A stretch of 64,000 nucleotides of DNA, from contig DATKBT010000052.1 of the NCBI GenBank assembly GCA_035546295.1, positions 36,032 through 100,031 on the forward strand. Reading direction: 5' to 3'. Under the pieces are notes generated by a model, which had not been told where the DNA came from, ran no database searches, and saw nothing but the letters and a program-made list of their open reading frames with translations. Below, one piece after another: positions 17,720 to 56,910 of the stretch (the stretch's first letter is position 1; every line of letters begins with the position of its first letter). A program made the position numbers and the translations under genes. The DNA is from Thermoanaerobaculia bacterium (GTDB taxonomy: Bacteria; Acidobacteriota; Thermoanaerobaculia; Multivoradales; Multivoraceae).

Positions 17720-18544
17720 TCAGAACGTCACCCCGAATCGCTTGCGCAGGGCGAAGGCGAACACCACCGAGAGGACCAGCAGCACGATCGACCAGTGAGT
17801 GTGCCAGCCGAAGAGCCAGACCTCGGCCTCGCGATATCCGATCGCCATCTCCTCGATCGGAACGCCCTTCGGGATGGGATCCTCGGCTGGGAACAGGAGC
17901 TGGTTGAGCAGACCGCGCTCGAGCCGGTTCGGCGAGCGGCGGGTCAGCTGGTCGGAGACCACCAGGTTCTTGGTGGTGCGGACGCCGCCGAGGTCGAGCG
18001 CCAGCTCGTAGCTGCCCGGAGCCTCGCCGACCAGCTTCCAGGCGAGCTCGTGGCGGCTCGGCGCCCACACCGGCGGCGAGTCGATGCGCACGCCCGGCGG
18101 CGCCTCGAGCGCGACCTCGGGCCGGCCGGCCGGCGCCTCCGGCGACAGCCGCACCGACAGCACCGTCGACTCGCCGACCGCGAGCCCTTCGTAGCCGTAG
18201 TGGAACTGGAGCTGCGCGAAGAGCAGGAACATCGGCACCAGCATGACCAGCAGGGGCTTCAGGTTGAGCCCCATGTACCTCAGGTTCTGGCGCAGCAGGT
18301 TGCCCTGGGCCGCGAGGATCGTCCGCAGGTCGTCGTTGAACAGGCGGATCTCGAAGAAGGAGGCGGCCATCCTCGCCTTGACCGCCTCGATCGCGCGCTG
18401 GTCCGAGAAGCGCTTGTAGACGAGCAGCGCCAGGATTGCGAACGGCAGCGAGACCACCGCGACGGAGACGAACGACGGCAGCGACCGAAACGGCATCAGG
18501 CCCAGGTCGACGAGGCTGCGGAGGATGGAGTTGAGGAACGTCAT
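17720..18544 (-). CDS. Integral membrane protein of unknown function
   Basis: 274-aa ORF with 4-6 predicted TM helices; no recognisable catalytic motif. Confidence 0.5.
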   Translation of the reverse strand: MTFLNSILRSLVDLGLMPFRSLPSFVSVAVVSLPFAILALLVYKRFSDQRAIEAVKARMAASFFEIRLFNDDLRTILAAQGNLLRQNLRYMGLNLKPLLVMLVPMFLLFAQLQFHYGYEGLAVGESTVLSVRLSPEAPAGRPEVALEAPPGVRIDSPPVWAPSRHELAWKLVGEAPGSYELALDLGGVRTTKNLVVSDQLTRRSPNRLERGLLNQLLFPAEDPIPKGVPIEEMAIGYREAEVWLFGWHTHWSIVLLVLSVVFAFALRKRFGVTF

Positions 18545-18746
18545 GGGGTGAGAGGGGGGGAACGGAATCTCCCTGCGGCGCTCGGGGTCGCTCGGGCCGT
18601 GGCCCGGTGGTGGCCGCGTTCGCGTGAGGAATGCTGCGGTCGCCGTATCGGATCGTCGCGGCTGCTAAGAGAGGTCGGCCGCTACGGGCCGCGCGTGCTC
18701 GCGGTGGCTTCTGGTGCGACGAGGCCGCTCTGGAGCCGCGAGCTCG

Positions 18747-18941
18747 TCAGGAGATGTAGCCCAGGCCCTGAAGTCGCTTCTTGATCTCCTCCTCGGAGTC
18801 CGCGTCCTCGAGCTGCGCGAGCTCCTTCTCGAGCGCGTGGGTGATGAACTCCTCGGGGGATGAGTAGCCGGCGATGTCGGAGTAGCGCTTGACCTTGGCC
18901 AGCAGTTCGGGGTCGAGCTTGATCTTGCTGCTCTTGAACAT
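18747..18941 (-). CDS. Small ribbon-helix-helix (CopG/Arc-like) protein, 64 aa
   Basis: Beta-strand KIKLD followed by two helices (PELLAKVKRYSD / SPEEFITHALEKEL). Charged, K/E-rich, clean ORF. Confidence 0.45.
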   Translation of the reverse strand: MFKSSKIKLDPELLAKVKRYSDIAGYSSPEEFITHALEKELAQLEDADSEEEIKKRLQGLGYIS

Positions 18942-18989
18942 TGGGTGTCCTCTGCGGTGGGCGGAGTCGTGGATCGGAGGCCGTCCGGA

Positions 18990-21134
18990 TCACGCGGCCT
19001 GCTCCGAGGCCCTCTTCTCGAACAGGGAGCGCCCTTCCATGTGGGCGGGCGGTCGGATGCCGAACAACTCGAGCGCGGTCGGTGCGATGTCGATCAGCGA
19101 CGGCTCCACCGCTTCGATCGGCCGGCTGCAGAAGAACACGCCCGGTACCAGCCGCGGATCGATGCAGTGGTCGCCGCTCCAGGCCTTGACGTTGTCCTCG
19201 AACAGCGGCGCAGAGACCACGCCGGTCGCGCAGTCCCACGAGGTCCGGTAGCCCGGGGCGTAGCCGATGATCAGATCCGGCGCGCTGCCTAGGTACGGCC
19301 CCGAGTACACGTCCTCGCTGGCGAAGGCCTCGTTGACGCCGACCGCCCCCGCCTCGTCGTCGCGCAGCCCGTTGAGGCCGGCGATGATCTCGGCCTTGAG
19401 CCTCTTCGCTTCGGCGCCCGGCTTGACGATGCCGTTGGCCTCGCGCCCCTCCAGGTTCAAGAACATGCCGGACAGCCCGAGCGCGTAGGCACGGGTCTTC
19501 GACCAGTCGACGCCGGTGAGCCACTCCTCGCTGCCATCGCTGTCCTGCTTCAACACCAGATAGCCGTTGTCGAGCAGCCACCGGTTGAGGTTCACCCCGC
19601 GGCGGAAGGAATCGAAGCCGTGGTCCGAGAGAACCATCAGCAGGTCGCCGTCGCGAAGCTTCGCCATCACGCGCCCGACCAAAGCGTCGTTGTGCTGGTA
19701 GTGCTCGACGATCGCGTCCTTGTGCTCGGGATCGACGATCCCGCGGGCGGCCGGGTGCCCCTCTTCGAGGTAGCGCCAGAACATGTGCTGGATGCGGTCG
19801 GTGGCGTCGAAGACGCAGACCAGGGCGCCGCGCCGCAGCTTCTCCAGCGCGGCGAAGAACATGCTCTCGCGCTCCCGATCGATGTCGTACGTCTGCTTCA
19901 GGAACGTGGCGTCGTCGGTGATCCCCTCGTTGAGCGCCCAGGTGTCCTCGGCGAGTCCGAGGGTCGAGTAGGGGCCCACCTTCTTGGTCAGGTAGGTCGA
20001 GTAGTAGCCCGGGTGGGAGATCGGCATGGCGGGCTTCTCAGGGCTCAGGTTGATCGGCGACAGGTAGAGCGAGAAGTGCTCGCCGATCTCGGTCACCTGA
20101 AGACGGCACATGCCGTGGACCTTGATCCCGGGCAGCGCCGCGAAGACCAGCGTCACCCAGTCCGACAGCTCACCTTCGCGCAGGACGAGGTGTTCGGCGC
20201 CGAGGTCGAGCCGCGCGGTCTTCGCCCGGCGGTCGAGCTCGATCGTCACCGGCAGGCGAAGCGGCTCGCCCGACTCGAGGAAGGTGTTCTCGGGTCCCTG
20301 GATGGTGGTGACGAAGCGGTCGGCGCTCGGCTCGCCGTCGAGGACGACGCGCAGGCCCCCCTCCTTGAATTTCTCGCTCGAGCGCCGAGTCGTGAAGAGC
20401 AGGAAGGTGCCCTGGGTGCCGAGGAGATCCGGGACGCACATCGCGGCGAGCTGGGCGCCGTAGAAGCGGTCCGGCGGGAAGGTGATCGGCACGCGCAGGA
20501 CCGTGCTCCAGATGTTGTGCTCGCCCAGGATGGTCCAGAAGGGCTTGGACTTGCGCAGGAGCCGGAGCTCCGGCTTCTGAAGCGGGATTCGGAACCTGCC
20601 GACCTTGAGGAAGCGGTCGAGGCGCCCGATGTGAGTCGAGGAGAGCTTCGGCAGGTAAGTGCGCAGGTCGCGGTCGAGGAAGTCGAAGATGTTGTGCTTC
20701 GCGGGATTGGTGCCGGTGCTGAATGACGACCAGGCGACCGGAGAGAGCGCCGGGTAGGTGGTGAGGATGCGGGCGTAGGAGCCGGTCGTGGCCAGCTTCT
20801 GGAAGTTGGGCAGCTTGCCTTCGGCCATCAGGCGGTCGGTGATTCGGGGATCCTGGCCGTCGAGCCCCACGACCACGAGCCGCTGGATCGACGCCTTGGG
20901 CGTCTTGGCGCGCCGCATCGCGCGAATCAGGGTCCGAAACGGCCAGATCATCAGCGAGCCGAGCGCGATGACGATGGTGCTGAACAGCACCATGAAGGAC
21001 GACAGCAGCGCGAAGCCCGCCCCGGGTCCGATATAGGCCCCGGCGGGGGCTGCCAGGGAGGCGGCGACTCCGACGGCAGCCGCCACCGCGAGGGTGAAAG
21101 GAAGGCGGCGGCTGGTGCTGGCTGGCGGACGCAT
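18990..21134 (-). CDS. Membrane-anchored alkaline-phosphatase-superfamily enzyme (type I phosphodiesterase/nucleotide pyrophosphatase family)
   Basis: N-terminal TM helix, then VVVGLDGQD...TYPALSPVAWSSFSTGTNPAKHNIFDF and C-terminal LMVLSDHGF metal-ligand motifs. Confidence 0.75.
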   Translation of the reverse strand: MRPPASTSRRLPFTLAVAAAVGVAASLAAPAGAYIGPGAGFALLSSFMVLFSTIVIALGSLMIWPFRTLIRAMRRAKTPKASIQRLVVVGLDGQDPRITDRLMAEGKLPNFQKLATTGSYARILTTYPALSPVAWSSFSTGTNPAKHNIFDFLDRDLRTYLPKLSSTHIGRLDRFLKVGRFRIPLQKPELRLLRKSKPFWTILGEHNIWSTVLRVPITFPPDRFYGAQLAAMCVPDLLGTQGTFLLFTTRRSSEKFKEGGLRVVLDGEPSADRFVTTIQGPENTFLESGEPLRLPVTIELDRRAKTARLDLGAEHLVLREGELSDWVTLVFAALPGIKVHGMCRLQVTEIGEHFSLYLSPINLSPEKPAMPISHPGYYSTYLTKKVGPYSTLGLAEDTWALNEGITDDATFLKQTYDIDRERESMFFAALEKLRRGALVCVFDATDRIQHMFWRYLEEGHPAARGIVDPEHKDAIVEHYQHNDALVGRVMAKLRDGDLLMVLSDHGFDSFRRGVNLNRWLLDNGYLVLKQDSDGSEEWLTGVDWSKTRAYALGLSGMFLNLEGREANGIVKPGAEAKRLKAEIIAGLNGLRDDEAGAVGVNEAFASEDVYSGPYLGSAPDLIIGYAPGYRTSWDCATGVVSAPLFEDNVKAWSGDHCIDPRLVPGVFFCSRPIEAVEPSLIDIAPTALELFGIRPPAHMEGRSLFEKRASEQAA

Positions 21135-21585
21135 CGGCAGGGATCCTTCCGGCTTCGAGATGCTCCCGCTCGTCGAGAGCCGAGCTGGAGGGAGCGTTGG
21201 AGCGCGACGGTGCGAACCCGAGCGCGTTCCGGTGCTGGCCGTTCGGCCAGTTGCGGGATGGGCAGTGTACGGGGAGGGTGGAGGCCAGTTCAAGGCGGCC
21301 GCCCCGTCGGCGCCGGCCTCCGTTTCTCGACGGAAGGCCGTCTTGCTCGCGAGTCCACCCGTCGCTATCGTAGCGCGACTGTCCGCTTGCCGGTTGCGAT
21401 CGGCAGCGATCCGACCTGCGATCGTCGGCGCCGAGCGCGCAGCGCGCTGAAAGGCGGCCGCCGTCCCGCCTGAGTCGACGAGTCCAGCGGAAGCTCACAG
21501 AATGGTCAAGGTCCGATCAGGTCGCTCCAGATGAGCTGGAATCCAGGGTTGAGCCGAGTCGGCCCGAACCCGCCAGGTTGACTCG

Positions 21586-22206
21586 ATGCAAGGAATCTCC
21601 AAGCTCTGGCGGCGCTTGCGCTATGGCGAGCCGGTGGTCGTGATCTCGGGCCTGCCGCGCTCGGGCACGTCGATGGCCATGAAGATGCTCGAGGCCGGCG
21701 GCCTGCGGCTGGTCAGCGACGGCCAGCGCGAGGCCGACGTGGACAACCCGAAGGGCTACTACGAGGACGAGCGGGTCAAGGGTCTCGAGCGCTCGAGCGA
21801 CCGCGCCTGGGTCCGCGATGCGCGGGGCAAGGGGATCAAGGTCATCTCCCGCCTGCTGCGATCCCTGCCGGCCGAGAACTTCTACCAGGTGGTCCTGATG
21901 CGCCGCGACCTCACCGAGGTGCTGGCCTCGCAGGCCAAGATGCTCGAGCGACGCGGCGAGGACGGGGGTTCGGACGACGAGCGCATGCGCAAGGTCCTCG
22001 AGAAGGACCTCTGGCAGGCGACCTATCACCTGAAGCGGGCGCCCAACTTCGAGTGGCTCGAGCTCCAGTACACCGAGGTCCTGGCGGATCCCGAGGGGCA
22101 GGCCCGGCGGATGGCCGCCTTCCTCGACTGCGCGCTCGACGTCGAGAAGATGGCGACCGTGGTCGATCCGGACCTGTATCGCAACCGGGCCGTCGCCGAG
22201 GCCTAG
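21586..22206 (+). CDS. Sulfotransferase family protein
   Basis: 5-prime-PSB loop VVVISGLPRSGTSMAMKML and 3-prime-PB region RLLRSLP. 206 aa. Confidence 0.7.
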   Translation: MQGISKLWRRLRYGEPVVVISGLPRSGTSMAMKMLEAGGLRLVSDGQREADVDNPKGYYEDERVKGLERSSDRAWVRDARGKGIKVISRLLRSLPAENFYQVVLMRRDLTEVLASQAKMLERRGEDGGSDDERMRKVLEKDLWQATYHLKRAPNFEWLELQYTEVLADPEGQARRMAAFLDCALDVEKMATVVDPDLYRNRAVAEA

Positions 22207-22476
22207 CGGGCTCGTGGTGATCACCACTCCCCAAACGAGCCGCGAGATCGCAGCGCGGTCATACCACGACCCCGCTAGCCCATGTTCCCCGCCCAAGCGC
22301 CGCAAGCGGCGCGGGCTCAGGTCGACTAGGCCTGAAGCCGCTGATTCCAGATCGTTTGGGTGCGGCTTGATCGAACATTGACCGTTTGTGAGCCTTGGTC
22401 TCGCGCTTGCGCGAGGCCAATGACCGCCGCCTGCCGCAGGCAGGCAAGAACTTTCCGCTGGCCTAGTCGACCTAGG
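22202..22476 (-). repeat. Copy A of a structured intergenic repeat (minus orientation), with a 60-nt hairpin insertion
   Basis: Reverse complement aligns at ~85-90% identity to 56911..57131. Begins on the sulfotransferase stop codon and ends 8 nt before the next start. Confidence 0.6.
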
Positions 22477-22483
22477 AGGAGTC

Positions 22484-23554
22484 TTGGAAGGAGTCGCGGC
22501 CGAGGCGCGGGCCGCGATCGCGGCCGCGCCGGCGTTCCGGCCGCCGCCCTGGCTGCGGGGCGCGCACGGCCAGACGGTCTGGAGCCCGCTATTCCGGCCG
22601 CGTCGTCGGCTTGCGTTCGAGCTCGAGCGCCTGCCCACTCCCGACCGAGACTTCGTTCGCCTCCACCATCTTTCGGAACCCGCGCTCGCGGAACCCGTTC
22701 CCAGGCTTTCGGAACCCGTTCCAAAGCCGTGCAGGCGACGAGCCGCGGGATGGGAGCGGCCGCGCCTGGTGATCCTTCATGGACTCGAGGGCTCAGCGCG
22801 CTCGAACTACGTGGGAGGTCTGGCGGAAAAGGCGATCGCGCAGGGGATGTCGGTCACCGCGATGGAGTTCCGCTCCTGCGGCGGCGAGCTCAATCGTGCA
22901 CGCCGCCTGTACCACCTCGGCGAGACCGAGGACCTCGAGCACGTGCTCTCGGTGCTGGTCCGGCGCGAGCCGGGGCGCCCGATCCTCCTGGCCGGCGTCT
23001 CGCTCGGCGCCAACGTCATCGTCAAGTGGCTCGGCGAGCGGGGCGAGGTCGCGCCGCCGGAAATGGCGGGAGCCGCCGTCATCTCGGCGCCCTTCGACCT
23101 CACGGTCAGCGGCCCGGTGCTGGACCGCGTCCTGGGCGGGCTCTACACCCGGCGCTTCCTGCGCACACTGGTTCCCAAGGCGCTCGCCAAGGAGCGTCAG
23201 TTTCCAGGGTCGATCGACCTGGAGCGCGTAGCGCGAGCACGCACGTTCGTCGAGTTCGATACCCACGCCACCGCCCGCTTCCACGGATTTCGCGACGCCT
23301 GGGACTACTGGCGGCGGTGCAGCAGCGGGCCCTTCCTGGAGACGGTCCGGCGGCCGCTGTTGCTGATCTCGTCGGCGGACGACCCGTTCAACCCGACCGA
23401 GACCCTCCCGCGCGGCATCGCGCGACGCAACCCGTGGGTGCTCGAGAGCTTCACCGAGAGGGGCGGACACGTCGGCTTCGTCGAAGGGGCGCCGTGGCGA
23501 ACGCGGCACTGGGCGGAGGAGCGGGCGATACGATTCCTGTCGCTCCTGGCCTGA
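22484..23554 (+). CDS. Alpha/beta hydrolase (YheT/ABHD1-3-like)
   Basis: RPRLVILHGLEGSARSNYV, nucleophile elbow GVSLGAN, C-terminal DDPF. Carries an in-frame insertion of tandem TTCGGAACCCG-like repeats. Confidence 0.75.
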   Translation: MEGVAAEARAAIAAAPAFRPPPWLRGAHGQTVWSPLFRPRRRLAFELERLPTPDRDFVRLHHLSEPALAEPVPRLSEPVPKPCRRRAAGWERPRLVILHGLEGSARSNYVGGLAEKAIAQGMSVTAMEFRSCGGELNRARRLYHLGETEDLEHVLSVLVRREPGRPILLAGVSLGANVIVKWLGERGEVAPPEMAGAAVISAPFDLTVSGPVLDRVLGGLYTRRFLRTLVPKALAKERQFPGSIDLERVARARTFVEFDTHATARFHGFRDAWDYWRRCSSGPFLETVRRPLLLISSADDPFNPTETLPRGIARRNPWVLESFTERGGHVGFVEGAPWRTRHWAEERAIRFLSLLA

Positions 23555-23776
23555 TCCCGCTCCTCGCTGCCTGGGTGCCCTCGCGGGATCGGCGGTCGTC
23601 GAGAGCGCGCCGCAGCGATCTCAGGAGCGCCGTCTTCCCCGCCGTCGGTCGCGACCACAACCGCCGGCAAGGGCGTCCCGAAAGCCCGGTCGGCGCCTCT
23701 GATAGCTTCGCGGTCCTTCTCCCTCGGGCGACCGAGGACCGACTCGACGCTTCCCCGGAATCCCGGAGACCGACTG

Positions 23777-24880
23777 ATGACCACCGCCGAGAACCTCCTC
23801 GAGGGCAAGGTGGCGGACGCCCGCGCTCGGCTCGACGAGCACGTGCGCGAGATCGTGGCCTGGCACTTCGACCCGAGCACCGGCACGCCTTTCTGGCTGG
23901 AGTACGCCGACCGGCTCGACTTCGATCCCTGCGCCGACGTCCGATCCTTCGACGACCTCAAACGCTTCCCGCCCTTCCAGGACGAGTGGCTGCGCGGCGG
24001 TCCGGTGCGGCGCTGGGTGCCGAAGGCGTTCGCCGACCGGCCGATCTACGTGTTCGAGACCGGCGGCACCACCGGCATCCCGAAGAGCCGCATCGCGATC
24101 GAGGACTTCCGGATCGACTACGAGATGTTCAGCGAGACGCTCCCCGAGCAGTACTTCCCGAAGGGCGGCAACTGGCTGATGCTGGGGCCGTCGGGTCCGC
24201 GGCGGCTGCGCCTCGCCGTCGAGCACCTGTGCCAGCACCGCGGCGGGATCTGCTTTTGCGTCGACCTCGATCCGCGCTGGGTCATCAAGCTGATCCAAAA
24301 GGGCTGGACCGAGCACCTCGAGGCCTACAAGCGCCACGTGGTCGACCAGGCGATCACCATCCTCTCTGCGGGACACGACATCAAGGCGATGTTCGCGACA
24401 CCGAAGCTGCTCGAGGCGCTGTGCTTCGCGCTCGAGGAGCAGGGCAGGACGCTGGCCGGGTGCGGGGTCCTCGGGATCTTCTCGGGGGGCACCGAGTTCA
24501 CGCCGCAGTGGACGCGTTTCGCGGTCGAGGAGCTGCTCGACGGCGTCTACATGACACCGACCTACGGCAACACGCTGATGGGTCTCGCCGCCTCCAAGCG
24601 GGTGAGCGCGGAGGAGGGGTATAAGATCAGCTACTACGCGCCGCAGCCGCGCGCCGTGCTCGAGGTGGTCGATCCAGAGGATCCCGACCGTCTCGTCGGC
24701 TACGGCGAGACCGGCCGGGTCCGGCTCACCACTCTGACCAGAGAGCTCTTCGTCCCCGGTTTCCTCGAGCGCGACGAGGGCGAGCGCGAGCCCCCCTACG
24801 AGACCTATCCCTGGGACGGCATCAGCGGCGTTCGCCCCTTCCACCAGCTCGCGGCGACGACGACGGTCGGCGTCTACTGA
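23777..24880 (+). CDS. LuxE-like acyl-protein synthetase (adenylate-forming enzyme)
   Basis: 367 aa; phosphate-binding loop YVFETGGTTGIPKS; size and layout of the LuxE family. Confidence 0.6.
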   Translation: MTTAENLLEGKVADARARLDEHVREIVAWHFDPSTGTPFWLEYADRLDFDPCADVRSFDDLKRFPPFQDEWLRGGPVRRWVPKAFADRPIYVFETGGTTGIPKSRIAIEDFRIDYEMFSETLPEQYFPKGGNWLMLGPSGPRRLRLAVEHLCQHRGGICFCVDLDPRWVIKLIQKGWTEHLEAYKRHVVDQAITILSAGHDIKAMFATPKLLEALCFALEEQGRTLAGCGVLGIFSGGTEFTPQWTRFAVEELLDGVYMTPTYGNTLMGLAASKRVSAEEGYKISYYAPQPRAVLEVVDPEDPDRLVGYGETGRVRLTTLTRELFVPGFLERDEGEREPPYETYPWDGISGVRPFHQLAATTTVGVY

Positions 24881-25009
24881 GGAAGGTGTGGTGGCTGCCA
24901 CACCTTCCTCGGTTGGTGTTCTCCTCGCTCCATGGACTCCGGCGCGTCGCCGGGGAACCGCCGGCGAGCCGTACCGCACGTTCTGACAGGTTCCACGCCA
25001 GGAGCATCG

Positions 25010-26443
25010 ATGATGCGCATTCCCGTACTTCGTTGGGGCAAGCCGTACGAATCGCTCGAGACCGACACGGTCGTCCACTTCGAGACCGGCGAGGAGCTCG
25101 CGGTGGTCGATCAGGCCAACCCGGGCCTCATCCAGCGCGACCTGCGAAGGATCTCTCTCGCGCGCGAAGCTTTGCGCGCGATCCCGAGCCGGGAGCTGAT
25201 CGGGATGGTCAGAGCGGCCGCCGATCTCTACATGTCGGCCGAGCTGCCGATGGGCGACGGCGTGCAACGTCCCGAGGACTTCGTTCGCATCCAGTCGGCG
25301 ACCACCGGCCTGCCGGAGCACATGTGCCGCGCCAACATGGAGAAGAACCACTTCGTGCTCACCCGCATGGACGAGGTGCTCGATGCGCTGACCCGCGGCC
25401 TCGACCTCGGGATCCTGGGGCGCGGCTACGGCGTCGAGGAGCGCGGCGTGCCGGTGAGCTACCAGGCGCAGGCCGCCGCGCTCGGCCTGGTGCTCCCCTC
25501 GAACTCGCCGGGGGTGCACACTCTGTGGATGCCGGTCATTCCGCTACAGGTCGGACTGGTGTTCAAGCCGGGTCCGCAGGAGCCATGGACCCCCTACCGG
25601 ATGACCGAGGCGTTCTACGCGGCGGGCGTGCCACGCGAGGCGATCTCGATCTATCCGGGGGGCGCCGAGGCGGGAGCCGCGGTGCTCGCCGCCAGCCCGA
25701 GGGCGCTGATCTTCGGCGGCAAGGAGACCGTCGACCGCTATCGCGGGAACCCCCGGGTCCAGCCGCACGGGCCGGGCTTCTCGAAGATCCTGCTCGGCGA
25801 CGACTGCGTCGACGAGTGGGAGCACTGGCTCGACGTGATGGTGTCGAGCGTCGCCGTCAACAGCGGCCGCTCGTGCATCAGCTGCTCGGGGATCTGGGCC
25901 TCCCGTCATACCCGCGAGATCGCCGAGGCGGTCGCCGAGCGCCTGGCCCCCATCGCGCCGAAGCCGATGACCGATCCCGACAGCCCACTGGCCGCGTTTA
26001 CGGTCCCCGGAGTGGCCAGGACGATCTCGGGCATGATCGACCGTCAGCTCGAGGCGCCCGGGGTCGAGGACGTCACCCAGCGGCTGCGCGGCGGGGAGTC
26101 GCGGCTGGTCGAGCGGGAGCGCTGCGATTTCCTGCGGCCGACGGTCGTGCACAGTGTGTCCCCCGAGCCCGAGATCGCCAACGTCGAGTACATGTTCCCG
26201 TTCGTCTCGGTCGTCGAGTGCCCGCAGGATCGCATGATCGACTCGATCGGCGATACCTTGGTGTGCAGCGCGATCACCTCCGATCCCGGCTTTCGCGCGC
26301 GGCTGATCGACGCGACGAACGTCGATCGGCTCAACCTGGGACCGGTGCCGACGATCCAGCTCAACTGGCTGCAGCCCCACGAAGGGAACATCATCGATTT
26401 CCTGTTCCGCGCCCGAGCCTTCCAGGAGAGCCCGATCGCATAG
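25010..26443 (+). CDS. LuxC-like acyl-CoA reductase (aldehyde dehydrogenase superfamily)
   Basis: 478 aa from the internal ATG of ORF 24932..26443. ALDH-like fold with SGRSCISCSGIW catalytic-Cys region. Immediately follows the LuxE-like gene. Confidence 0.65.
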   Translation: MMRIPVLRWGKPYESLETDTVVHFETGEELAVVDQANPGLIQRDLRRISLAREALRAIPSRELIGMVRAAADLYMSAELPMGDGVQRPEDFVRIQSATTGLPEHMCRANMEKNHFVLTRMDEVLDALTRGLDLGILGRGYGVEERGVPVSYQAQAAALGLVLPSNSPGVHTLWMPVIPLQVGLVFKPGPQEPWTPYRMTEAFYAAGVPREAISIYPGGAEAGAAVLAASPRALIFGGKETVDRYRGNPRVQPHGPGFSKILLGDDCVDEWEHWLDVMVSSVAVNSGRSCISCSGIWASRHTREIAEAVAERLAPIAPKPMTDPDSPLAAFTVPGVARTISGMIDRQLEAPGVEDVTQRLRGGESRLVERERCDFLRPTVVHSVSPEPEIANVEYMFPFVSVVECPQDRMIDSIGDTLVCSAITSDPGFRARLIDATNVDRLNLGPVPTIQLNWLQPHEGNIIDFLFRARAFQESPIA

Positions 26444-26605: not shown

Positions 26606-27691
26606 ATGAGGGGCATCCTGCTGCTCGGCGCGATCGCCGGGTTGGCGCTCTCGGCCGTTTCGCCGGCGGAGGCGCAACGGGGCCGGTGGTCCCGGCTCGA
26701 GATCCCTGATCTCGGCTCGACGGTGGATGTCTACCTGCCACGTGGCGCGGGGCTCGAGGCGAGCGCCGCGGCCGGCGAGGGAGCCAGCGCGGTCGTCTTC
26801 CTGCACTCCTCGGGCCGCGCCCCCGAAACGTATCGCAGCACGCTCGGCGAGGCGGCCGAGAGCCTGGGTGTGGTGCTCTTGCTGCCTCGGTCGACCACGC
26901 CGTTCGGATGGGGCTTCGAGGACGACTTCGCGCTGGTCGAGTCGAGCGTCGCGCGAGTGGGCTCCATCGTTTCGCTCGATCGCGCGAAGATCGCGATCGC
27001 CGGGCACGGCGACGGCGCCGGCTACGCCTACCTGTTGGCCTACTTCAGCGACTTGGAGCTGAGCGCGGTGCTGACGCTGGGAGCGCCGTTCCTCCAGATC
27101 TCGGAGCTGTTCGAGCCCGAGAGCCCGCCTCCCATCCGCATGATCTACGGCGCCGAGGATCCCTTCTACCGCAGCGAGGGAGGGCATCTGCGCGAGCAGT
27201 GGAGCAGCCTCGGGATCGAGTGGCAGCTCGACGTCCTCCCCGGCTTCGGGCATTCGACCTGGCCGCAGGAGGCGATCCTCACGGGCTTCAGGTTTCTGGC
27301 CGAGCGCAGCGGGCGCTCACCGAGTGGACGCTGCTCGACCGGCCGGACTGCGCTCTGCCTCGCCGAAGGCCGCTTTCGCGCCGAGGTCACCTTCGCCGAC
27401 GTCGAGGGGCGTCCCGGCCGAGGCAGGGTGATCAACGGCGACACGCCCGACTCCGGGATCTTCTGGTTCTTCGACAGCGACAACTGGGAGGTCATGGTCA
27501 AGGTCCTGGACGGATGCGCCATCAACGATCGCTTCTGGGTCTTCGCGGCGGCCTCGACCGATGTCGACTATCGCCTGACGGTGACCGACCAGGTCACCGG
27601 TCGGGTCGTGCAGTATCGGCACGAGCCGGGAGCGCCGGCGCGAGCGGTCACCGACGTCGAGGCCTTCCCGGGTTGCCGGAAGGCCTCGTGA
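26606..27691 (+). CDS. Secreted alpha/beta-hydrolase esterase with C-terminal extra domain
   Basis: Signal peptide MRGILLLGAIAGLALSAVSPAEA, VVFLHSSG oxyanion region, IAIAGHGDGAGYA nucleophile-elbow-like. Confidence 0.6.
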   Translation: MRGILLLGAIAGLALSAVSPAEAQRGRWSRLEIPDLGSTVDVYLPRGAGLEASAAAGEGASAVVFLHSSGRAPETYRSTLGEAAESLGVVLLLPRSTTPFGWGFEDDFALVESSVARVGSIVSLDRAKIAIAGHGDGAGYAYLLAYFSDLELSAVLTLGAPFLQISELFEPESPPPIRMIYGAEDPFYRSEGGHLREQWSSLGIEWQLDVLPGFGHSTWPQEAILTGFRFLAERSGRSPSGRCSTGRTALCLAEGRFRAEVTFADVEGRPGRGRVINGDTPDSGIFWFFDSDNWEVMVKVLDGCAINDRFWVFAAASTDVDYRLTVTDQVTGRVVQYRHEPGAPARAVTDVEAFPGCRKAS

Positions 27692-27816
27692 GCGGCGTCC
27701 GGGGCCCGGCCCCTTGCGCGCGGCCTGCGGCCGCGCACGCGTCTGCCGTCGCGGACGCTGGAGGTGCGGCGTCGTCCCGGCCGAGGGACTCGACGTCGTT
27801 CACCCCATAGAATCCG

Positions 27817-34021: not shown

Positions 34022-35212
34022 ATGTTCGCCGACTTCTTCTACCACCTGCGGGGCTACGGTCTGAAGGTGACGATCACCGAGTGGCTGACCCTGATGCGGG
34101 CGCTGGCCGGCGGGCATTCGCGCGCCGATCTGTCGGTGTTCTACCACCTGGCCCGGGCCCTGCTCGTCAAGCGGGAGTCGGACTACGACACCTACGACCG
34201 GGCCTTTTCGTCGTTCTTTCTCGGCCTCGAGGACCACTTCGGCGTCGACGAGGCCCTGCTCGAGTGGCTGTCGAACCCGATCCTCCCCGAGATCAGCGAC
34301 GAGGACCGGGCGAAGCTCGAGGAGCTGTCGCTCGAGGAGCTGCGCCAGCGGTTCCTCGAGCGCCTCGCCGAGCAGGACGAGCGTCACGACGGCGGCAACA
34401 AGTGGATCGGCACCGGCGGGACGTCGCCGTTCGGCCATGGCGGCGAGCATCCGACCGGCATCCGCGTCGGCGGCGGGGGCGGAGGGCGCAGCGCGGTGCA
34501 GGTCGCAGGCTCACGGCAGTTCCGCAACCTGCGCAACGACCGGATCCTCGACACCCGGTCGATCGGAGTCGCGCTGCGGCGCCTCAAAAGGCTGCAGAAG
34601 GACGACGGCCCCGAGGAGCTCGACCTCGACCGGACGATCGATCAGAGCGCCCGCAACGGCGGCGAGATCGAGTTGGTGTTCACGCCGCCGAGGCGCAACC
34701 GCATCAAGCTCCTGCTGTTGATGGACGTCGGCGGCTCGATGGATCCACACACGCTGCTCTGCGAGCGGCTGTTCAGCGCCGCCCACGCCGCCAATCACTT
34801 CAAGAAGTTCGAGCACCGCTTCTTCCACAACTGCGTCTACGAGCGCCTCTACACCGACATCGCACGCTGGCGGGGGGAGCCGACCTCGCAGGTGCTCAAG
34901 AACCTCGACCACACCTGGTCGGTGGTGTTCGTCGGCGACGCCTGGATGAGCCCGTACGAGCTCACCCACTCCGGCGGAGCCATCGACTACGGGTACAGGA
35001 ACAACGACACCGGTCTCACCTGGCTGCGCCGGATCCGCGAGCGCTGCCCCAGCTCGGTCTGGCTCAACCCCGAGCCCAGGAAGATCTGGAACGCCCCGAC
35101 GATCCACCTGATCCGCCAGCTCTTCCCGATGTACCCGCTCACCATCGACGGCCTCACCGAGGCGATCGACGTGCTGCGCGGCATCCGGCCGAACCGGGCC
35201 CTGGCGGCGTAG
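34022..35212 (+). CDS. VWA domain protein (CoxE-like partner of MoxR ATPase)
   Basis: MIDAS motif LLLLMDVGGSMD; position immediately downstream of MoxR. Confidence 0.75.
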   Translation: MFADFFYHLRGYGLKVTITEWLTLMRALAGGHSRADLSVFYHLARALLVKRESDYDTYDRAFSSFFLGLEDHFGVDEALLEWLSNPILPEISDEDRAKLEELSLEELRQRFLERLAEQDERHDGGNKWIGTGGTSPFGHGGEHPTGIRVGGGGGGRSAVQVAGSRQFRNLRNDRILDTRSIGVALRRLKRLQKDDGPEELDLDRTIDQSARNGGEIELVFTPPRRNRIKLLLLMDVGGSMDPHTLLCERLFSAAHAANHFKKFEHRFFHNCVYERLYTDIARWRGEPTSQVLKNLDHTWSVVFVGDAWMSPYELTHSGGAIDYGYRNNDTGLTWLRRIRERCPSSVWLNPEPRKIWNAPTIHLIRQLFPMYPLTIDGLTEAIDVLRGIRPNRALAA

Positions 35213-35393
35213 CGCAGGCTGAGAGCGCGCTGTGCCGGCTCGAAGGCGGGCCGCGCCGGAAACAATCCGCTTCCCGGCCTCGTTCTCCCGGGTGGGAGAC
35301 ACCGACCGACGGTGCAGAGAGGATACGAGAGGATGCGGAGAGGATGATGCAAAGGATCCTGCGGATCCCGACAGCAACCGACGGGGGAGGAAG

Positions 35394-36242
35394 ATGAACG
35401 AGCTCGACGATCTGGAGATTCGCTCCGACGACGCGGACGTGGCGTCCGGCGACGAGAGATCCTCGGGCGGCCGCTCGTCGAATGCCCTCTGGTTCGTGCT
35501 CGCGGGCCTGCTGATCGGTCTCGCCGCAGCGGCGGCGTGGTGGTGGTGGCCGCGCGGCGCCGGCGAGGCGACGATCGCGGAGGACGAAGCTTCAGGGATC
35601 GCCGAGCCGGCGGACGGGTGGGCGCCGGTCGAGGAGAACGCCGCCCTCGACCCCGACCTGCCGCCGCTCGAGCAGAGCGACCCCTTCGTGCGCGAGCTGG
35701 TGGGAACCCTCTCGTCGCACCCCAACGTCGCCGCCTGGATCGCCACCGACGGTCTGGTCGACCGCTTCACCAAGGCCGTCTCCAACGTCGCGTACGACGA
35801 GGACCCGGCGTCGCACCTTCCCTTTCTGCGCCCTTCCGGCAGGTTCTCGGTGAACACGGGCGAAGAAGGGGCGGTGGTGATCGACCCCGCCTCTTACGCG
35901 CGCTACGACCTGCTGGCCGACGTCGTCGTCTCGCTCGACACCGAAGGCTCGGTGGCCATCTACCGCAAGCTGCTCCCCCTGTTCGAGTCTTCCTACCAGG
36001 AGCTGGGGATGCCGGGGGACTTCCGCGACGCCCTGCGCCGAGCGATCGCGAAGGTGCTGGCGACGCCCACCCTGCCAGGCGAGATCGCGGTGCGCGAGGA
36101 AACCCTCGCCTACCGGTATCAGAACGCCGAGCTCGAGGCGCTCTCTCCGGCGCAGAAGCTGCTCCTGCGCTCCGGCTCGCGCAACGTCGCGCGAGTCAAG
36201 GCCAAGGTCCGCGAGATCGCGGACGCCGCCGGGCTCCTGTAG
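35394..36242 (+). CDS. DUF3014-like membrane-anchored protein
   Basis: N-terminal TM LWFVLAGLLIGLAAAAAWWWW, then a conserved DPFVRELVGTLSSHPNVAAWIATDGLVDRF region. Confidence 0.55.
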   Translation: MNELDDLEIRSDDADVASGDERSSGGRSSNALWFVLAGLLIGLAAAAAWWWWPRGAGEATIAEDEASGIAEPADGWAPVEENAALDPDLPPLEQSDPFVRELVGTLSSHPNVAAWIATDGLVDRFTKAVSNVAYDEDPASHLPFLRPSGRFSVNTGEEGAVVIDPASYARYDLLADVVVSLDTEGSVAIYRKLLPLFESSYQELGMPGDFRDALRRAIAKVLATPTLPGEIAVREETLAYRYQNAELEALSPAQKLLLRSGSRNVARVKAKVREIADAAGLL

Positions 36243-36726
36243 CGATCAGGTTCCCCTCGGCCGCAGCGTTTTCCGAGCCGGCCACGCCTCAGCCTCGTGG
36301 TCGCGGCGGTGGAGCTCTCTCCACCGGCAAGCGTCGCCGAGTGCGGCCTGGCGCAGGCGGGGAGAGGGTCCCATCCCCGCGGTCCGCGGACGGAACCCGC
36401 TCGCCGTGTCGAGGCGGGGACCGCCGCGCCAATCCTGGGCCTCGCGTCAGAGGCCTCCGGAGATCGATCGCTCGGCGGATCAGGGACGCCCGGGCGGTGG
36501 CGACTCGAGCCTGTAGCCGAGGGCCCGCGCGACGTCCAGGAGGTTGGCGATCACCGTGCCGTCGACGATCGTGCCGTCACGCACCGGAAGCTCAGGGGTG
36601 TCTGGAGGGTTTCTGGACGGCAGAGGCCGCCGAGCGTATCCGTCACGACGCCGATCGCCGGCGATCTCTGTTCCCCGACGTCGCCTATTCGCTCGAAGAG
36701 CTGATCGCGGAGGGGGAGCGTAGCCG

Positions 36727-36856
36727 GGCCCGCCTGCGGGCTTGCGGCGCACCGAGTGATCGGCTGCCGGGCTCGTGGTATGACCACGCCGCGCGCTCTC
36801 GCGGCTCGTTTGGAGAGTGGTGACCGCCACGAGCCCGCGGGGCTTCGTCTCGCGAC
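36727..36856 (+). repeat. Copy B (truncated, 3-prime half only) of the structured intergenic repeat
   Basis: Aligns to the 3-prime ~120 nt of 56911..57131 (gcttgcggcgc...ggctcgtggtatgacc...gagtggtgacc(g/a)ccacgagcccgc). Confidence 0.5.
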
Positions 36857-36905
36857 CCGAGGGACGGCTGTTCGAGACAAAGGCATTCGAGAGGAGCGGT
36901 TCCAG

Positions 36906-38515
36906 GTGAGAGAACACCCTTCGAGGAAGAGACCCGGGCTCCGATTCGCGGCCCAGGCACTGATGGTCGGGCTGGCGCTCGGCGCCTGTGCCCGGTCCAC
37001 GCCTCCGGTCGGGAGCAGCGCGGAGCTCGATCTCGTGGTCGACGAGTACCTCGCTCGCGGCTCGGCGCGCAGCGACTGGAGCTGGGATTCCCTGCTGGCG
37101 GGGGAGTTGCCCGATCTCTCACCGGAGCGGTTCGAGCACGGAATCGAGGAGCGCCGCCGGCTCCTCGAGCGCGCTCGCTCGATCGCGTCCGAGGACCTCA
37201 CGCCGCCCGAGCGCACCGATCGCAGAGCCTTGATCGCCCTCCTGGAGGGCGCCATCCACGACGCCGAGCGGGAGCGGCGATGGGAGAGCGAGCCTTCGCT
37301 CTACCTCCCTGCCGGCAGGGTCGCGCCAGCCTTCGCCGTCCGCCCGAGCGCTCGACCCGGGAGCGATCTTCCAGGCGCGATCGACGATCGAGAGCCTGCG
37401 CTCCCGCCTCGCCGGCCTCGCCGATCCGGAGCTCGTCGGAGCCACCGAGCGTGCCCTGGTCGAGCTCGAGGAGCATCTGAGGTTTCTCGAGGAGGACCTC
37501 CTGCCCCGCTCGGACGGGTGAGTGGGCCATCGGCAAGGAGCACTACGACTTCACCCTGCAGCACCGCTGGCTGCTGGACGCCGACGCGGACGAGATCCTC
37601 GCCGTCGGGCGAGAGGTGTTCGAGCGCACGGTCGCCGAGGCGCAGGAGGTGGCGCAGCGCATCCAGCCCGGCAGCGACTGGGTCACGGTCTACGAGTCGC
37701 TCAAGGACGACCATCCGCCGGCCGACGGACTGAAGGCCGCCTACCAGGAGCAGATGGACGCTGCGAAGCAGTTCCTGATCGAGCACCGCGTGGTGACCCT
37801 GCCGGAGGGAGAAGAGGTCGTCACCGTGGATACTCCTCCCGCGATGCGTCGCTCCTCGCCCTACGGCACCTTCGACTCGGTCTACCCCGACGACGACGAG
37901 CTCCTGGGGAGGCTGGTGCTGACGCCGATCGAGGACTGGCTCACGCCTGAGCAGCGGCGCGAGCGCCTGCGTGCCCACCACCGTTCGTGGATCCCCCTGA
38001 TCGCCGTCCACGAGGCCTACCCCGGTCACCACGTGCACGCGCTCGAGACCTACCAGAACCCGCGCAAGCGCCACCACGTCCGCGAGGCGATCTTCTCCAA
38101 AGGCTGGGGGCTCTACACCGAGCAGCTGATGTGGGATCTCGGCTTCCTGCACGGCGACGACGTCGAGCTGACGAAGCTCCGCAATCGTCTCTGGAGGGCG
38201 GCGCGCGTGATCCTCGACGTGAGCCTCCACACCGGCAGGATGACCTTCGACGAGGCCGTCGACTTTCTGGTCGAGCGAGTGCGCTTCGACCGCCTCGCGG
38301 CCGAGCTCGAGGTCGGCATCTACGTCGAACGCCCCACCTACGTCCTCGGCTATCTCATCGGCATGCTCGAGATCGAGAAGATGTGCCGCGAGTGGGTCGA
38401 GAAGAACGGCGAGCCCGCCGAGCCTCGCCAGCTCTACGACGCCCTGCTGAGAATCGGATCCCTGCCGCCGGCGCTGGTTCGCGCCGAGCTGTTGGGGGAG
38501 GAGCCGCCGCCGTAG
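36906..38515 (+). pseudogene. DUF885 family lipoprotein gene disrupted by two +1 frameshifts (~37340 and ~37520)
   Basis: Lipobox LALGAC start in frame 0, middle segment in frame 1 ending RSDG-stop at 37519-37521, C-terminal 300 aa in frame 2 (ORF 37616..38515) with HEAYPGHH zinc motif. Joined sequence RSDG/EWAIGKEHYDF is contiguous in intact DUF885 proteins. Confidence 0.6.
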
Positions 38516-38734
38516 CGCCTTTCCCCGGGGCCCCGGTCAGTGCGGCTCGCGATCGTGTCGTCGACCGTCGTTTCGGCCCGAAACATCCTGCGCGGGCCCG
38601 CGTCGTCTCGCCGGCCGTGAGCGCGTCCAGAAGGGGACGCTCGCTCTCGGTTCACGACAACCGGGTCGCGCGTCGCGATCGCCGTTCACGCGCTTGGCCC
38701 GCGGAGGGTCGCGGGCGCCAGGGGCCGCGGTCTC

Positions 38735-55454: not shown

Positions 55455-56371
55455 GCGATTCCAAGCCCCGCAAGCCCCGCGATCCGCGTACCGGGTTGCG
55501 CACCTCGGCCACGCTGGCCACCGTGCTCACCCTCCTCGGGCACACCGTCCTCGGGTTCGAGCAGCCGGCCTCGATGATCCTGGTGGCCCTGGTCACCGGC
55601 TACTCGAGCGCGATCTTCTTCGAGTGGCTCGACGCCCGCGTCAACGGCCGGCAGCCGGGCTATCGGGGCAAGGGCTGGAAGGGAGTGGTGGACTACCTGC
55701 TCTCCGCGCACATGACCTCGATCACCATGAGCTTCCTGATCTACACCAACAGTCGCATGGGGGTCATGGCCTTCGCGGTGGCGGCGGCCATTGCCTCGAA
55801 GTACCTGTTCCGGGTCGAGGTCGACGGCAAGCTGCAGCACTTCATGAACCCGTCGAACTTCGGCATCGCGCTGGCGATCGTGATGTTCCCATGGATCGCG
55901 CCCATCCCGTACGTGTTCACCGAGCACGTCACGGGCTTCGTCGACGTCCTGGTGCCGGCGGTGATCTTCCTGCTCGGATTCCGGTTGAACTACCTGTTCA
56001 CCCGTCGCATCCCGCTCATCCTGAGCTGGCTCGGCGCCTACGTCTTCCAGGCCTTTGCTCGCTGGATCCTGCTCGACCACCGCTTCGAGGCGGCAGTGGC
56101 GTCGATGACGGGCGCGGCCTTCGTGCTCTTCAGCTTCTACATGATCACCGACCCCAGGACCTCGCCGTCGAGCCAGAAGGGGCAGATCGCGTTCGGGACC
56201 TCGATCGGACTGGTCTACGGTGTCCTGATCGCCTTCCAGCTCACGTTCACCGCGTTCTTCGCGGTCACCGTCGTCGCTGGAGCACGCGGAGCCCTACTCT
56301 ACGTCTCGGCCTGGCGGCGGCGCCGTGCGCTGGTGCCGCATCCGGCGCCGCTCGCGGTCCCCGAGAGCTGA
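55451..56371 (+). CDS. UnbU-like polytopic membrane protein (partner of UnbV/ASPIC proteins)
   Basis: 306 aa, ~8 TM helices, 4-nt overlap with the UnbV-like gene. Confidence 0.6.
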   Translation: MSDSKPRKPRDPRTGLRTSATLATVLTLLGHTVLGFEQPASMILVALVTGYSSAIFFEWLDARVNGRQPGYRGKGWKGVVDYLLSAHMTSITMSFLIYTNSRMGVMAFAVAAAIASKYLFRVEVDGKLQHFMNPSNFGIALAIVMFPWIAPIPYVFTEHVTGFVDVLVPAVIFLLGFRLNYLFTRRIPLILSWLGAYVFQAFARWILLDHRFEAAVASMTGAAFVLFSFYMITDPRTSPSSQKGQIAFGTSIGLVYGVLIAFQLTFTAFFAVTVVAGARGALLYVSAWRRRRALVPHPAPLAVPES

Positions 56372-56444
56372 CCGTCTCGGGCTCTTTGCGGATTGCGAGG
56401 AGCCGCGGTCGGCTCCGCGAGCGATCGCGCGGTCGAGCCGCCCG

Positions 56445-56720: not shown

Positions 56721-56910
56721 GGGGGGCCTCTCGCCGGCCCGCGTGCACGCTCACGGTCTCCCTCCCGTTGGGGCCACCAGGCGACCGGATCGGCGATCGA
56801 AGTCGGGTGCGAAGGAGTGGCCAGTGCGGTCGCTGTCGAGACGGAGGTCGGTACCGTTCGCGGCAACCGAGAAGACGACACCCGTGCGGAGGATTTCGAG
56901 CGGGCCCAAT

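Follow-up and report, generated by a model that had tools for sequence, protein, structure and literature searches.

A REP- and MITE-like modular hairpin repeat inserted at a CTAG stop-codon site in a Thermoanaerobaculia genome

In the genome of a Thermoanaerobaculia bacterium, a copy of a palindromic repeat fills the whole gap between two closely coupled genes, for a sulfotransferase and an alpha/beta-hydrolase, and the locus raises the question of whether this close fit reflects a part of the operon or a piece of mobile DNA. The analysis covered a stretch of 64 kb (the window) and loci related to it. An initial annotation of the window had this copy (copy A) filling the gap, overlapping the TAG stop of the sulfotransferase gene and ending 8 nt before the hydrolase start, and direct reading agrees on each of these points. 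Copy A extends from 22203 to 22475 on the plus strand, as established by sequence reading, alignment, nhmmer and empty-site alignments. Its first CTAG (22203-22206) contains the stop (TAG, 22204-22206, plus strand) of ORF 21586-22206, assigned by Pfam to Sulfotransfer_3/_1; its terminal CTAG (22472-22475) is followed by GAGGAGTC and then by the TTG at 22484 that opens an Abhydrolase_1/Hydrolase_4 ORF (Pfam). Directly 3' of the copy, the hydrolase gene has kept its GAGGAG ribosome-binding site and its TTG start intact (22476-22486, plus strand), and an identical TTG start is called for the hydrolase orthologue on the related contig L051. An exact-protein look-up of the window sulfotransferase returned no record. 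The "LuxE/LuxC" label given to the downstream genes was left unconfirmed by Pfam, which yielded a sub-threshold AMP-binding match and an Aldedh match only.

Relatives in which the junction is empty provide the most direct evidence. Positions 18077-24096 of the window align with L051 at 91-95% identity in three blocks, skipping only 21467-21574 and 22192-22470. The junction in L051 and L052 reads CCTAGGAG, where the window has CCTAG, 269 nt and then GAG; in a longer frame, the empty junction CCTAGGAGTGGTCTTGGAG matches GCCTAG and CCTAGGAGGAGTCTTGGAAG on the two sides of the insert. The inserted DNA is placed at 22207-22475 or, equivalently, at 22203-22471. No flanking bases were lost or gained and the DNA is otherwise collinear, the stop-to-start junction being 8 nt (CCTAGGAGTGGTCTTG) when empty and 277 nt with copy A. 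Syntenic relatives at greater distance, L053/L054 (85%) and L056 (83%), also lack the element, with gaps of 38 and 29 nt. Because the orthologous junction in L051 and L052 is empty, copy A is a recent lineage-specific insertion, placed precisely at the CTAG in which the sulfotransferase gene has its TAG stop, and it regenerated a stop codon on one side and an AGGAG ribosome-binding site on the other. A second copy in the neighborhood, copy D, is absent from L051 and is likewise a lineage-specific insertion. A clean CTAG empty site was obtained for one copy, A: around copy C, homology with L057 (96%) stops 10 nt past the DAO stop and relatives at 89% have different neighbors, while at copy B the relative L064 (87%) is not alignable upstream of DUF885.

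It is likely that copy A is a non-coding, non-autonomous mobile hairpin element of an undescribed, fairly ordinary repeat family with REP/MITE-like character; the family is found in a Thermoanaerobaculia (Acidobacteriota) lineage. The full element consists of three modules in fixed order, M1, M2 and M3, spanning ~215 nt, or 270-290 nt with extras. M1 is a 75-nt hairpin with feet (C/G)TAG and CTA(G/C), represented in copy A by CTAGCGGGCTCGTGGTG...CACCACGACCCCGCTAG with CTAG at both feet (22203-22278, plus strand; nhmmer E = 5e-18, folds and pair counts). M2 is a small GC hairpin, CCCGCCCAAGCGCCGCAAGCGGCGCGGGC in copy A (22279-22318, plus strand; nhmmer E = 2e-12, RNAalifold helix columns 95-123). 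M3 is built from a 13-bp long-range stem around a hairpin that varies and a core that is conserved and richer in A/T, and it ends in CTAG. Its 5' part in copy A (22319-22393, plus strand) comprises the outer-stem arm AGGTCGACTAGGCC, the variable inner hairpin and the conserved core CTTGATCGAACATTGACCGTTTGTGAGC; its 3' part, TTTCCGCTGGCCTAGTCGACCTAG (22452-22475, plus strand), supplies an outer-stem arm and the terminal CTAG. The window contains a 22-nt M1 motif three times, where shuffled sequence would give 0.00, and arms are 87-97% complementary between 22190-22387, 36759-36847 and 56942-57136. Both M1 arms read (C/G)TAGCGGGCTCGTGGT 5' to 3' on opposite strands. A dimer of two REP units, each with a small hairpin of its own, can be drawn for M1 (the left arm contains GTGGTGNTCACCAC) but not demonstrated. 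The conserved M3 core gave no consensus match to an IHF site or an outward promoter.

Copy A had also been described as carrying, relative to copy C, an extra hairpin of ~60 nt. The extra segment is real, measuring ~58 nt in the alignment (22394-22451, between GTGAGC and TTTCCGCTGG), but it folds as two adjacent hairpins rather than one, with stems of 7 bp (GCCTGCC/GGCAGGC) and 11-12 bp (TTGGYCTCGCGC/GCGCGAGRCCAA). Read on the minus strand, this module, X2, starts with GTTCTTGCC and ends with GACCAAG, with edges ambiguous by ~3 nt (nhmmer E = 8e-21; 0 motif occurrences expected by chance). Since only 6 of 28 assessable M3 junctions carry X2 or a remnant of it, X2 is an optional nested module, and the proposal of an insertion in A rather than a deletion in C stands. 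Copies in L001, a different genome, and in the metagenome contigs L041 and L010 have X2 at this same site and in this orientation, so copy A most likely arrived already carrying it and was not hit in place. A related module, X1, is found at a different junction (M1/M2) and in opposite orientation in L008, L012 (in tandem), L037, L041 and L048. X1 and X2 both begin with GTTCTT, end with CCAAG and sit just 5' of G(T/C)TC; within the DNA sampled, X was seen only inside its host element, in either orientation.

Four copies are present in the window, three of them bearing M1. Copy C (56911-57123, minus strand) is canonical, an M1-M2-M3 element of 213 nt without X and with CTAG at both ends, located between convergent genes for a YoeB/ParE-like toxin and a DAO oxidoreductase. 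Copy B (36722-36846, minus strand), upstream of a decayed DUF885 gene, is truncated and degenerate; it retains M1 and a variant M2, has no M3 and has lost its CTAG tags, and it recurs in an independent assembly, L065, which matches the window over 34933-38825 at 100% identity and shows DNA of this organism to be present in run SRR8556377. Copy D (21471-21570, minus strand; nhmmer E = 4e-16) is a solo, diverged M3 (21471-21564) with the tail of an M2, lying ~15 nt upstream of the sulfotransferase ATG. Its flanks are GGCGGG direct repeats, not CTAG, and it does not fold into the canonical stem. Copy D was missed in the initial annotation and adjoins the upstream side of the same sulfotransferase gene that copy A follows.

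Beyond the window, a motif scan located about 45 further copies in metagenome contigs with unrelated flanks, and one more copy lies in a Thermoanaerobaculia MAG; the metagenome copies were all found by the M1 motif, which M1-less and solo X copies would escape. The M1-M2-M3 order and the ends are the same at more than 15 loci with unrelated flanks. No copies fall inside coding-like ORFs as delimited by crude GC3-based gene calls, and neither the core motif nor the M1 motif had any match (0) in viral contigs. Adjoining copies are all head-to-tail (L003, L007, L008, L010, L022 and L028). A single common tag is shared in the arrays of L007, L008, L010, L022 and L028, the last of which contains M2 twice.

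The fit of copies to their gaps can be understood from the target. The window contains 26 CTAGs against 86 +/- 9 expected, a threefold depletion, and the few targets cluster at TAG stops, so copies often fill gaps and overlap stop codons. Ten of the 26 lie inside copies A and C, and a terminal TAG doubles as the stop of a neighboring ORF in at least 9 copies. The M1 tag is CTAG in 22 of 55 copies and GTAG in 14; at the 3' end of M3, CTAG is exact in ~15 of 21, with one- or two-base variants in the others. The tag's first base and the final base of M1 covary (C-G in 26 of 42, G-C in 10 of 42), and the tag is therefore probably element sequence rather than a target duplication. A direct check for duplication found one CTAG in the empty site and two in the filled site; the 3' end of the GTAG subfamily is still CTAG. 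The composite has no terminal inverted repeats: when the first 40 nt are compared with the reverse complement of the last 40, the two ends share CTAG only (5' end CTAGCGGGCTCGTGG, reverse complement of the 3' end CTAGGTCGACTAGGCC).

Several accounts of such an element can be envisioned. A selected cis-acting RNA element, acting as terminator, attenuator, mRNA stabilizer or processing site in the sulfotransferase-hydrolase operon, would suit the strong folding of both strands of copy A as RNA (far better than shuffles, z = -5.2 and -6.5) and its co-orientation with both flanking genes, with which it would be co-transcribed; REP and BIME sequences are reported to stabilize or attenuate transcripts (background cited in PMC3733652). 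This account is nevertheless very unlikely. The terminator or attenuator that had been suggested between the two genes is not supported, with 0 hairpin-plus-T-run sites on both strands of 21300-22700 and 56600-57600. A search for sigma-70-like promoters inside and near these two copies, A and C, was negative; Rfam 15 gave 0 matches reaching the gathering threshold anywhere in the window, and with a cutoff of E <= 10 the surroundings of the two copies yielded chance-level matches only (E >= 0.76). Four related lineages have this junction without the element, their two genes being separated by 8-38 nt; since the spacing in close relatives is 8 nt with nothing inserted, copy A is not a conserved regulatory part of the operon. 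Orientation relative to neighboring genes is near random among the ~45 copies (29 sense, 25 antisense, by crude GC3-based gene calls). The hairpins are Watson-Crick palindromes lacking strand preference or covariation: folding both strands of 22 copies favored the G-richer strand by 5.5 +/- 6 kcal/mol, with nearly all pairs Watson-Crick, and RNAalifold with pair counts on 15 canonical copies showed almost invariant helices, where a covariation term of +0.71 and 2 of 43 compensatory pairs come from pairs too conserved for covariation to inform. Judged from the sequence, lost translational coupling and a structured 269-nt mRNA spacer would be side effects of the insertion and not a selected function, and the insertion may incidentally alter how the downstream gene is expressed.

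The other accounts concern dispersal. A classical MITE, derived by deletion from a DDE insertion sequence (e.g., IS5-like, with a preference for CTAG/YTAR) and moved by cut-and-paste with a 4-bp CTAG target-site duplication, would explain why one CTAG in the empty site becomes a CTAG on both sides of copy A, and the element is small, non-coding and intergenic. M1 and M3 each have inverted-repeat arms of their own, and the extra CTAG or CTAC motifs that often lie a few nucleotides upstream of copies could be excision footprints. We regard this origin as unlikely, given that the composite lacks terminal inverted repeats, that in the GTAG subfamily the 5' tag is unlike the CTAG of the 3' end and has its pairing partner in a CTAC within M1 (and so would not be a duplicated target), that tandem pairs are all head-to-tail although CTAG is palindromic, and that a related insertion sequence was not seen. 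Without any transposition, pre-existing palindromes could have exchanged sequence by recombination, gene conversion or replication slippage, which would have spread and reshuffled the repeats and assembled the modules in place. The mosaic architecture speaks for such processes, as do the truncated copies (B, D and many that consist of M1-M2 only), the tandem-array joints at an 8-mer common to the M2 end and the M1 start (GCGGGCTC, L003), the GGCGGG microhomology flanking copy D, and the free combination of M2 and M3-inner variants with X2. They do not readily yield a complete 269-nt composite at a precise CTAG in collinear DNA with no flanking base change, nor identical module order and ends at the many dispersed loci. 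Recombination probably explains the arrays and truncations, not the dispersal, and as a full account it is extremely improbable.

As a possible mechanism, we tentatively put forward that an HUH/Y1 transposase acting on single-stranded DNA, of the IS200/IS605 or RAYT type, moves the element in trans. This mechanism is favored over a classical MITE because the ends share only CTAG, the tag covaries within M1, and arrays share a single tag. The reverse strand reads CTAG, then the element, then CTA(G/C) at its end, with a single empty site and dissimilar end hairpins. On the minus strand of the window, copy A would have integrated 3' of CTAG, the element itself ending in CTA(G/C), a pattern that would amount to C|T cleavage at both ends. 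REP biology offers a precedent in the GTAG tag 5' of the hairpin and in C|T cleavage on single strands (PMC8266576). X may in turn be a similar element of second order, with a site of the GTTC type. The fuller version of this scheme, in which X is a second-tier element of 58-72 nt and two hairpins with a GTTC-type site inside a CTAG-homing, first-tier HUH-type element of ~215 nt, is doubtful; were it true, X would be a parasite of a parasite, and the first tier would home to rare CTAG, and so to TAG stops and operon junctions, restoring the stop and the ribosome-binding site.

The left and right subterminal hairpins of IS200/IS605 elements resemble each other. Unlike these, the stems of M1 and M3 are dissimilar, which counts against the HUH model, and the junction of copy A is accounted for just as well by a DDE transposase that duplicates a 4-bp CTAG. 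Pfam identified no transposase of any kind, Y1_Tnp included, among all coding-like ORFs of the 64-kb window. A phmmer search with IS200 TnpA and E. coli RAYT queries gave no match among 3271 six-frame ORFs from the window and loci, a search of low sensitivity over ~0.4 Mb of mostly short contigs. Nor do the loci have any longer sequence in common that would point to an autonomous form of the element.

Among known systems, REP/REPIN/BIME sequences associated with RAYT (TnpA_REP) are similar in their GC-rich palindromes with a (G/C)TAG tetranucleotide at the hairpin foot, in their high copy number outside genes (here four copies in 64 kb and ~45 metagenome loci), in inverted arms that form one large stem-loop, and in mosaic clusters with other motifs. 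REP termini often supply the TAG stop of the neighboring ORF (PMC3733652), as here, and the junctions are compatible with the C|T cleavage described for REP (PMC8266576). The unit described here is much larger, however: M1 alone has 75 nt and the composite of three modules 215 nt, where REP units have 20-40 nt. Its tag is paired with the opposite arm rather than unpaired, and CTAG is commoner than GTAG. Its clusters are head-to-tail, in contrast to the alternating orientation of BIMEs, and a RAYT (Y1 HUH) gene flanked by repeats was not found in the ~0.4 Mb sampled.

The palindrome-associated transposable elements (PATEs), non-autonomous derivatives in the IS200/IS605 family, share the lack of terminal inverted repeats, hairpin-rich ends, apparent integration beside a fixed tetranucleotide without true duplication, termination in the same or a similar tetranucleotide, and the possibility of head-to-tail re-insertion at the element's own end. 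They differ in that the end hairpins here are unrelated in sequence, the tetranucleotide lies within the stem rather than a few nucleotides away, and TnpA or TnpB was not found nearby. Pneumococcal BOX elements (boxA-boxB(n)-boxC) likewise have ordered modules with optional or repeated internal ones (compare tandem X1 in L012 and the doubled M2 in L028), frequent truncated forms, strong folding and a location between genes; there is no sequence relationship, the host phylum is another, and in the present family a clean empty site demonstrates that a defined tetranucleotide was the point of insertion. In MITEs of the Correia type, the terminal inverted repeats are 26 bp long and TA is duplicated. 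The Correia elements of Neisseria resemble the present family in being non-coding, intergenic and 100-300 nt long, in using a short, A/T-containing palindromic target, and in their ability to sit inside operons and be co-transcribed, whereas the ends here are not mutual inverted repeats.

The value of the locus is that insertion at one defined site is documented by both a filled and an empty allele, for a repeat family not described before and in an uncultured class of Acidobacteriota whose mobile elements have hardly been described. This genome has 70% GC and is depleted of CTAG, and a target found mostly at TAG stops gives the appearance of gap filling and stop overlap; copies can sit in operons and leave the stop codon and ribosome-binding site intact. 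Copy A alone reveals no new regulatory mechanism; if the HUH hypothesis is true, REP/RAYT-like biology would extend to larger composites and to nested second-order parasitism. For annotators, copies of this repeat break assemblies. Several contigs terminate at or near copies, for example L011, L043 and L044.

Copy A (22203-22475) is a full element carrying an extra module, with CTAG at either end. The first CTAG (22203-22206) contains the TAG stop (22204-22206) of a Sulfotransfer_3/_1 open reading frame (ORF; 21586-22206); the second (22472-22475) is followed by GAGGAGTC and then by the TTG at 22484 that opens an Abhydrolase_1/Hydrolase_4 ORF. Direct reading confirms the layout described in the initial annotation, in which the repeat overlaps the stop and fills the gap up to the hydrolase start. 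The repeat is not a product of chance, since the window has three occurrences of its 22-nt M1 motif where 0.00 are expected; long reverse-complement matches also join 22190-22387 to 36759-36847 and to 56942-57136. Four copies are present in the window: A; B (36722-36846), a degenerate M1 with a variant M2; C (56911-57123, minus strand), the canonical full copy; and D (21471-21570, minus strand), a diverged solo M3 that had been overlooked. The LuxE/LuxC label once given to the genes at 23777-26443 is not confirmed, as neither family is reported in Pfam at E <= 0.001; the matches there are a sub-threshold AMP-binding domain (21.7 bits, cutoff 29.9) and an aldehyde-dehydrogenase family.

Beyond the window, a scan of species-representative genomes yielded one real copy, in the Thermoanaerobaculia MAG L001, and homologues of the window proteins likewise carry the Thermoanaerobaculia label. 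A metagenome scan, in which all copies were recovered through the single M1 motif, gave 48 loci with about 45 true copies in unrelated flanks. Profile searches divide the element into modules: M1, a 75-nt hairpin, (C/G)TAGCGGGCTCGTGGTGGTCACC...GGTCATACCACGAGCCCGCTA(G/C); M2, a small GC hairpin whose apex comes in two or three versions; and M3, whose 13-bp outer stem (GGTCGACTAGGCC/GGCCTAGTCGACC) encloses a ~30-nt variable hairpin, of at least five sequence types, along with the conserved core CTTGATCGAACTTTGACCGTTTTGTGAACTTCCCGCTGG, and which terminates in CTAG. The complete M1-M2-M3 order is found in more than 15 loci; truncated forms (M1 only, M1-M2 or M3 only) are numerous, and head-to-tail arrays occur in L003, L007, L008, L010, L022 and L028. 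Sub-elements are also arrayed in tandem, at L003 2293-2554, L022 16-436 (overlapping L021) and L012 21-92; an (M1-M2)n array has a period of 114 nt, jointed at GCGGGCTC, common to the end of M2 and the start of M1, and an (M1-M2-short M3)n array a period of 174 nt.

Relative to copy C, copy A was described as carrying an additional 60-nt hairpin. Alignment does place an extra segment of ~58 nt at 22394-22451, and it folds as two adjacent hairpins rather than one. In copy A, L001 and L041 this module, X2, separates GTGAGC from TTCCCG of M3; it is also present in a partial upstream element of L010, and deletion remnants are seen in L029 and L031. Because X2 or a remnant is found at only 6 of ~28 assessable junctions, the segment is an extra in copy A; at the level of the family it is an optional, nested module, and copy C did not arise by deletion. 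As copies in other genomes have X2 at this very position, copy A probably arrived with it already aboard. A relative, X1, shares the central hairpin TTGGTCYCGCGCAAGCGCGRGACCAA with X2 and differs in the second; it occupies the M1/M2 junction of L008, L012 (twice, in tandem), L037, L041 and L048, oriented opposite to its host element, and L010 carries a three-hairpin version uniting X1 and X2. Each X, taken in its own direction, runs from GTTCTT to CCAAG, just 5' of G(T/C)TC, and none was seen outside a host element in the sampled DNA, which is biased to M1-bearing contigs.

Insertion is shown by relatives with an unoccupied site. The nearest sulfotransferase homologue (94% amino acid identity) lies on contigs L051 and L052. 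Window positions 18077-24096 align to L051 in three blocks of 91-95% identity that leave out only 21467-21574 (copy D) and 22192-22470 (copy A). Where copy A stands in the window, L051 and L052 read ...CACCTCCTAGGAGTGGTCTTGGAG, comprising the stop codon, the ribosome-binding site and, 8 nt past the stop, a TTG, while the filled junction of the window reads ...GAGGCCTAG[CGGGC...GTCGACCTAG]GAGGAGTCTTGGAAG. Copy A is also missing from remoter syntenic relatives, L053/L054 (85%) and L056 (83%), with gaps of 38 and 29 nt; given its absence from both the closest relative and these outgroups, insertion in the lineage of the window is far more parsimonious than repeated precise deletion. Insertion restored the TAG stop at one end and AGGAG at the other, and the hydrolase opens with the TTG also used in L051. 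Copy D, likewise absent from L051, has GGCGGG rather than CTAG at its flanks and sits ~15 nt ahead of the sulfotransferase ATG. A single clean CTAG empty site, that of copy A, was obtained; attempts for B and C yielded none.

The 621-bp sulfotransferase gene lies between two lineage-specific, mutually inverted insertions of the same family (D and A), and identity to L051 is 95.3% over the gene segment, compared with 91.3% and 91.8% on either side; the synteny seen in relatives speaks against import of the gene. A diverged M1 relic at L053 15809-15862 occupies an intergenic region of 355 nt, compared with ~120 nt at the window equivalent (27691-27811), which indicates that the family predates the window's lineage, at different sites.

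The 3' end of M3 is an exact CTAG in ~15 of 21 cases, the remainder being one- or two-base variants, and the tag at M1 is CTAG in 22 and GTAG in 14 of 55 copies. The first base of this tag is the pairing partner of M1's final base (C-G in 26/42, G-C in 10/42), so the tag belongs to the element and is not duplicated target. In at least nine copies the terminal TAG doubles as the stop of the neighboring ORF. The window has 26 CTAG sites where dinucleotide-preserving shuffles predict 86 +/- 9, a threefold shortfall, and copies A and C account for 10 of the 26. A CTAG-seeking element would therefore find few targets, many of them TAG stops, which explains why a copy appears to fill a gap and overlap a stop. 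Another palindromic repeat with CTAG at its flanks, CTAGCCGGAGATGTGCTCGTGCTGGCC...GCACATCGGAGGCTAG, is unrelated to this family and absent from the window; in L005 (128-188, minus strand) it immediately adjoins the 3' CTAG of that copy, and in the 84% relative L055 (10364-10380) it lies ~85 nt past the sulfotransferase stop, at the contig end.

Dispersal to unrelated sites and precise insertion at CTAG are both observed, and the family is very probably a non-autonomous mobile element. How it moves is a more tentative matter. Movement by DDE cut-and-paste fits less well than the logic of single-strand HUH transposases: apart from CTAG the composite's two ends have nothing in common and so form no terminal inverted repeats, the ends are hairpins, the tag is the element's own, CTAG is near-invariant at the other side, and head-to-tail arrays have one common tag. 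Seen from the reverse strand, integration would take place 3' of CTAG, and the element would terminate in CTA(G/C), the equivalent of C|T cleavage at both ends. Against the HUH model, neither the window nor the loci yielded a transposase of any kind, the end hairpins are dissimilar, the flanks of copy D differ, and the clean CTAG empty site is a single one. An HUH mechanism specifically is rated as rather less likely than not.

Published features of REPs match this element: a GTAG tag at the foot of the hairpin (published REP work), single-strand C|T cleavage by TnpA_REP (PMC8266576), and termini that provide TAG stops with dimers folding as one large stem-loop (PMC3733652); Y1 transposases have been reported in Acidobacteria (PMC3733652). 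GTAG-type REP/REPIN/BIME and IS200/IS605-derived palindromic elements are closest in behavior; as no enzyme was found, membership in the REP or IS200/IS605 group is tentative. BOX-type modular repeats are similar in architecture. The element lacks the terminal inverted repeats that define a classical MITE, and its clusters do not alternate in orientation as those of a BIME would. Searches of Rfam and the literature returned no description of the family, which is best filed as new within the small structured mobile repeats, a known class, possibly with a nested second-order module as an added twist.

A terminator between the two genes had been proposed, yet no hairpin with a T-run was found in or near copies A and C, nor any sigma-70-like promoter, and the element has no match in Rfam. 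By crude, heuristic GC3-based gene calls, copies lie 29 sense and 25 antisense to neighboring genes, and adjoin gene ends 32 times versus gene starts 22. Folding is good on both strands, with a small energy difference between them and nearly all pairs Watson-Crick; RNAalifold recovers the three helices with essentially no covariation, the copies being too alike. Taken with the unoccupied sites in relatives, these results speak against conserved regulation of this operon by the element. Even so, 269 nt of stable structure set between formerly coupled genes may plausibly have an incidental effect.

Near copy B, the DUF885 gene (36921-38515) looks decayed at its 5' end: the open frame at 37481-38515 covers only profile positions 203-531, and the upstream third is 78-79% identical, with indels, to the intact 594-aa orthologue in L064. 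The same state is seen in L065, an independent Logan assembly 100% identical to window 34933-38825, so an error in assembling the window is not the cause. Around copy C, the interval 56720-57513 between a DAO gene and a toxin gene is lineage-specific, homology to the 96% relative L057 stopping 10 nt past the DAO stop. The toxin gene, adjoining copy C, encodes a YoeB/ParE-like domain (type II toxin-antitoxin; 56229-56720), and between the DAO gene and copy C a PLD-like fragment (PLDc_2 profile positions 5-54, ~57319-57466, minus strand) may be a gene remnant cut off at or near copy C. A 234-nt direct repeat of 74% identity (62540-62773 and 63365-63598), in a large ORF with Lcl_C-terminal domains, is an internal protein repeat with no relation to the element.
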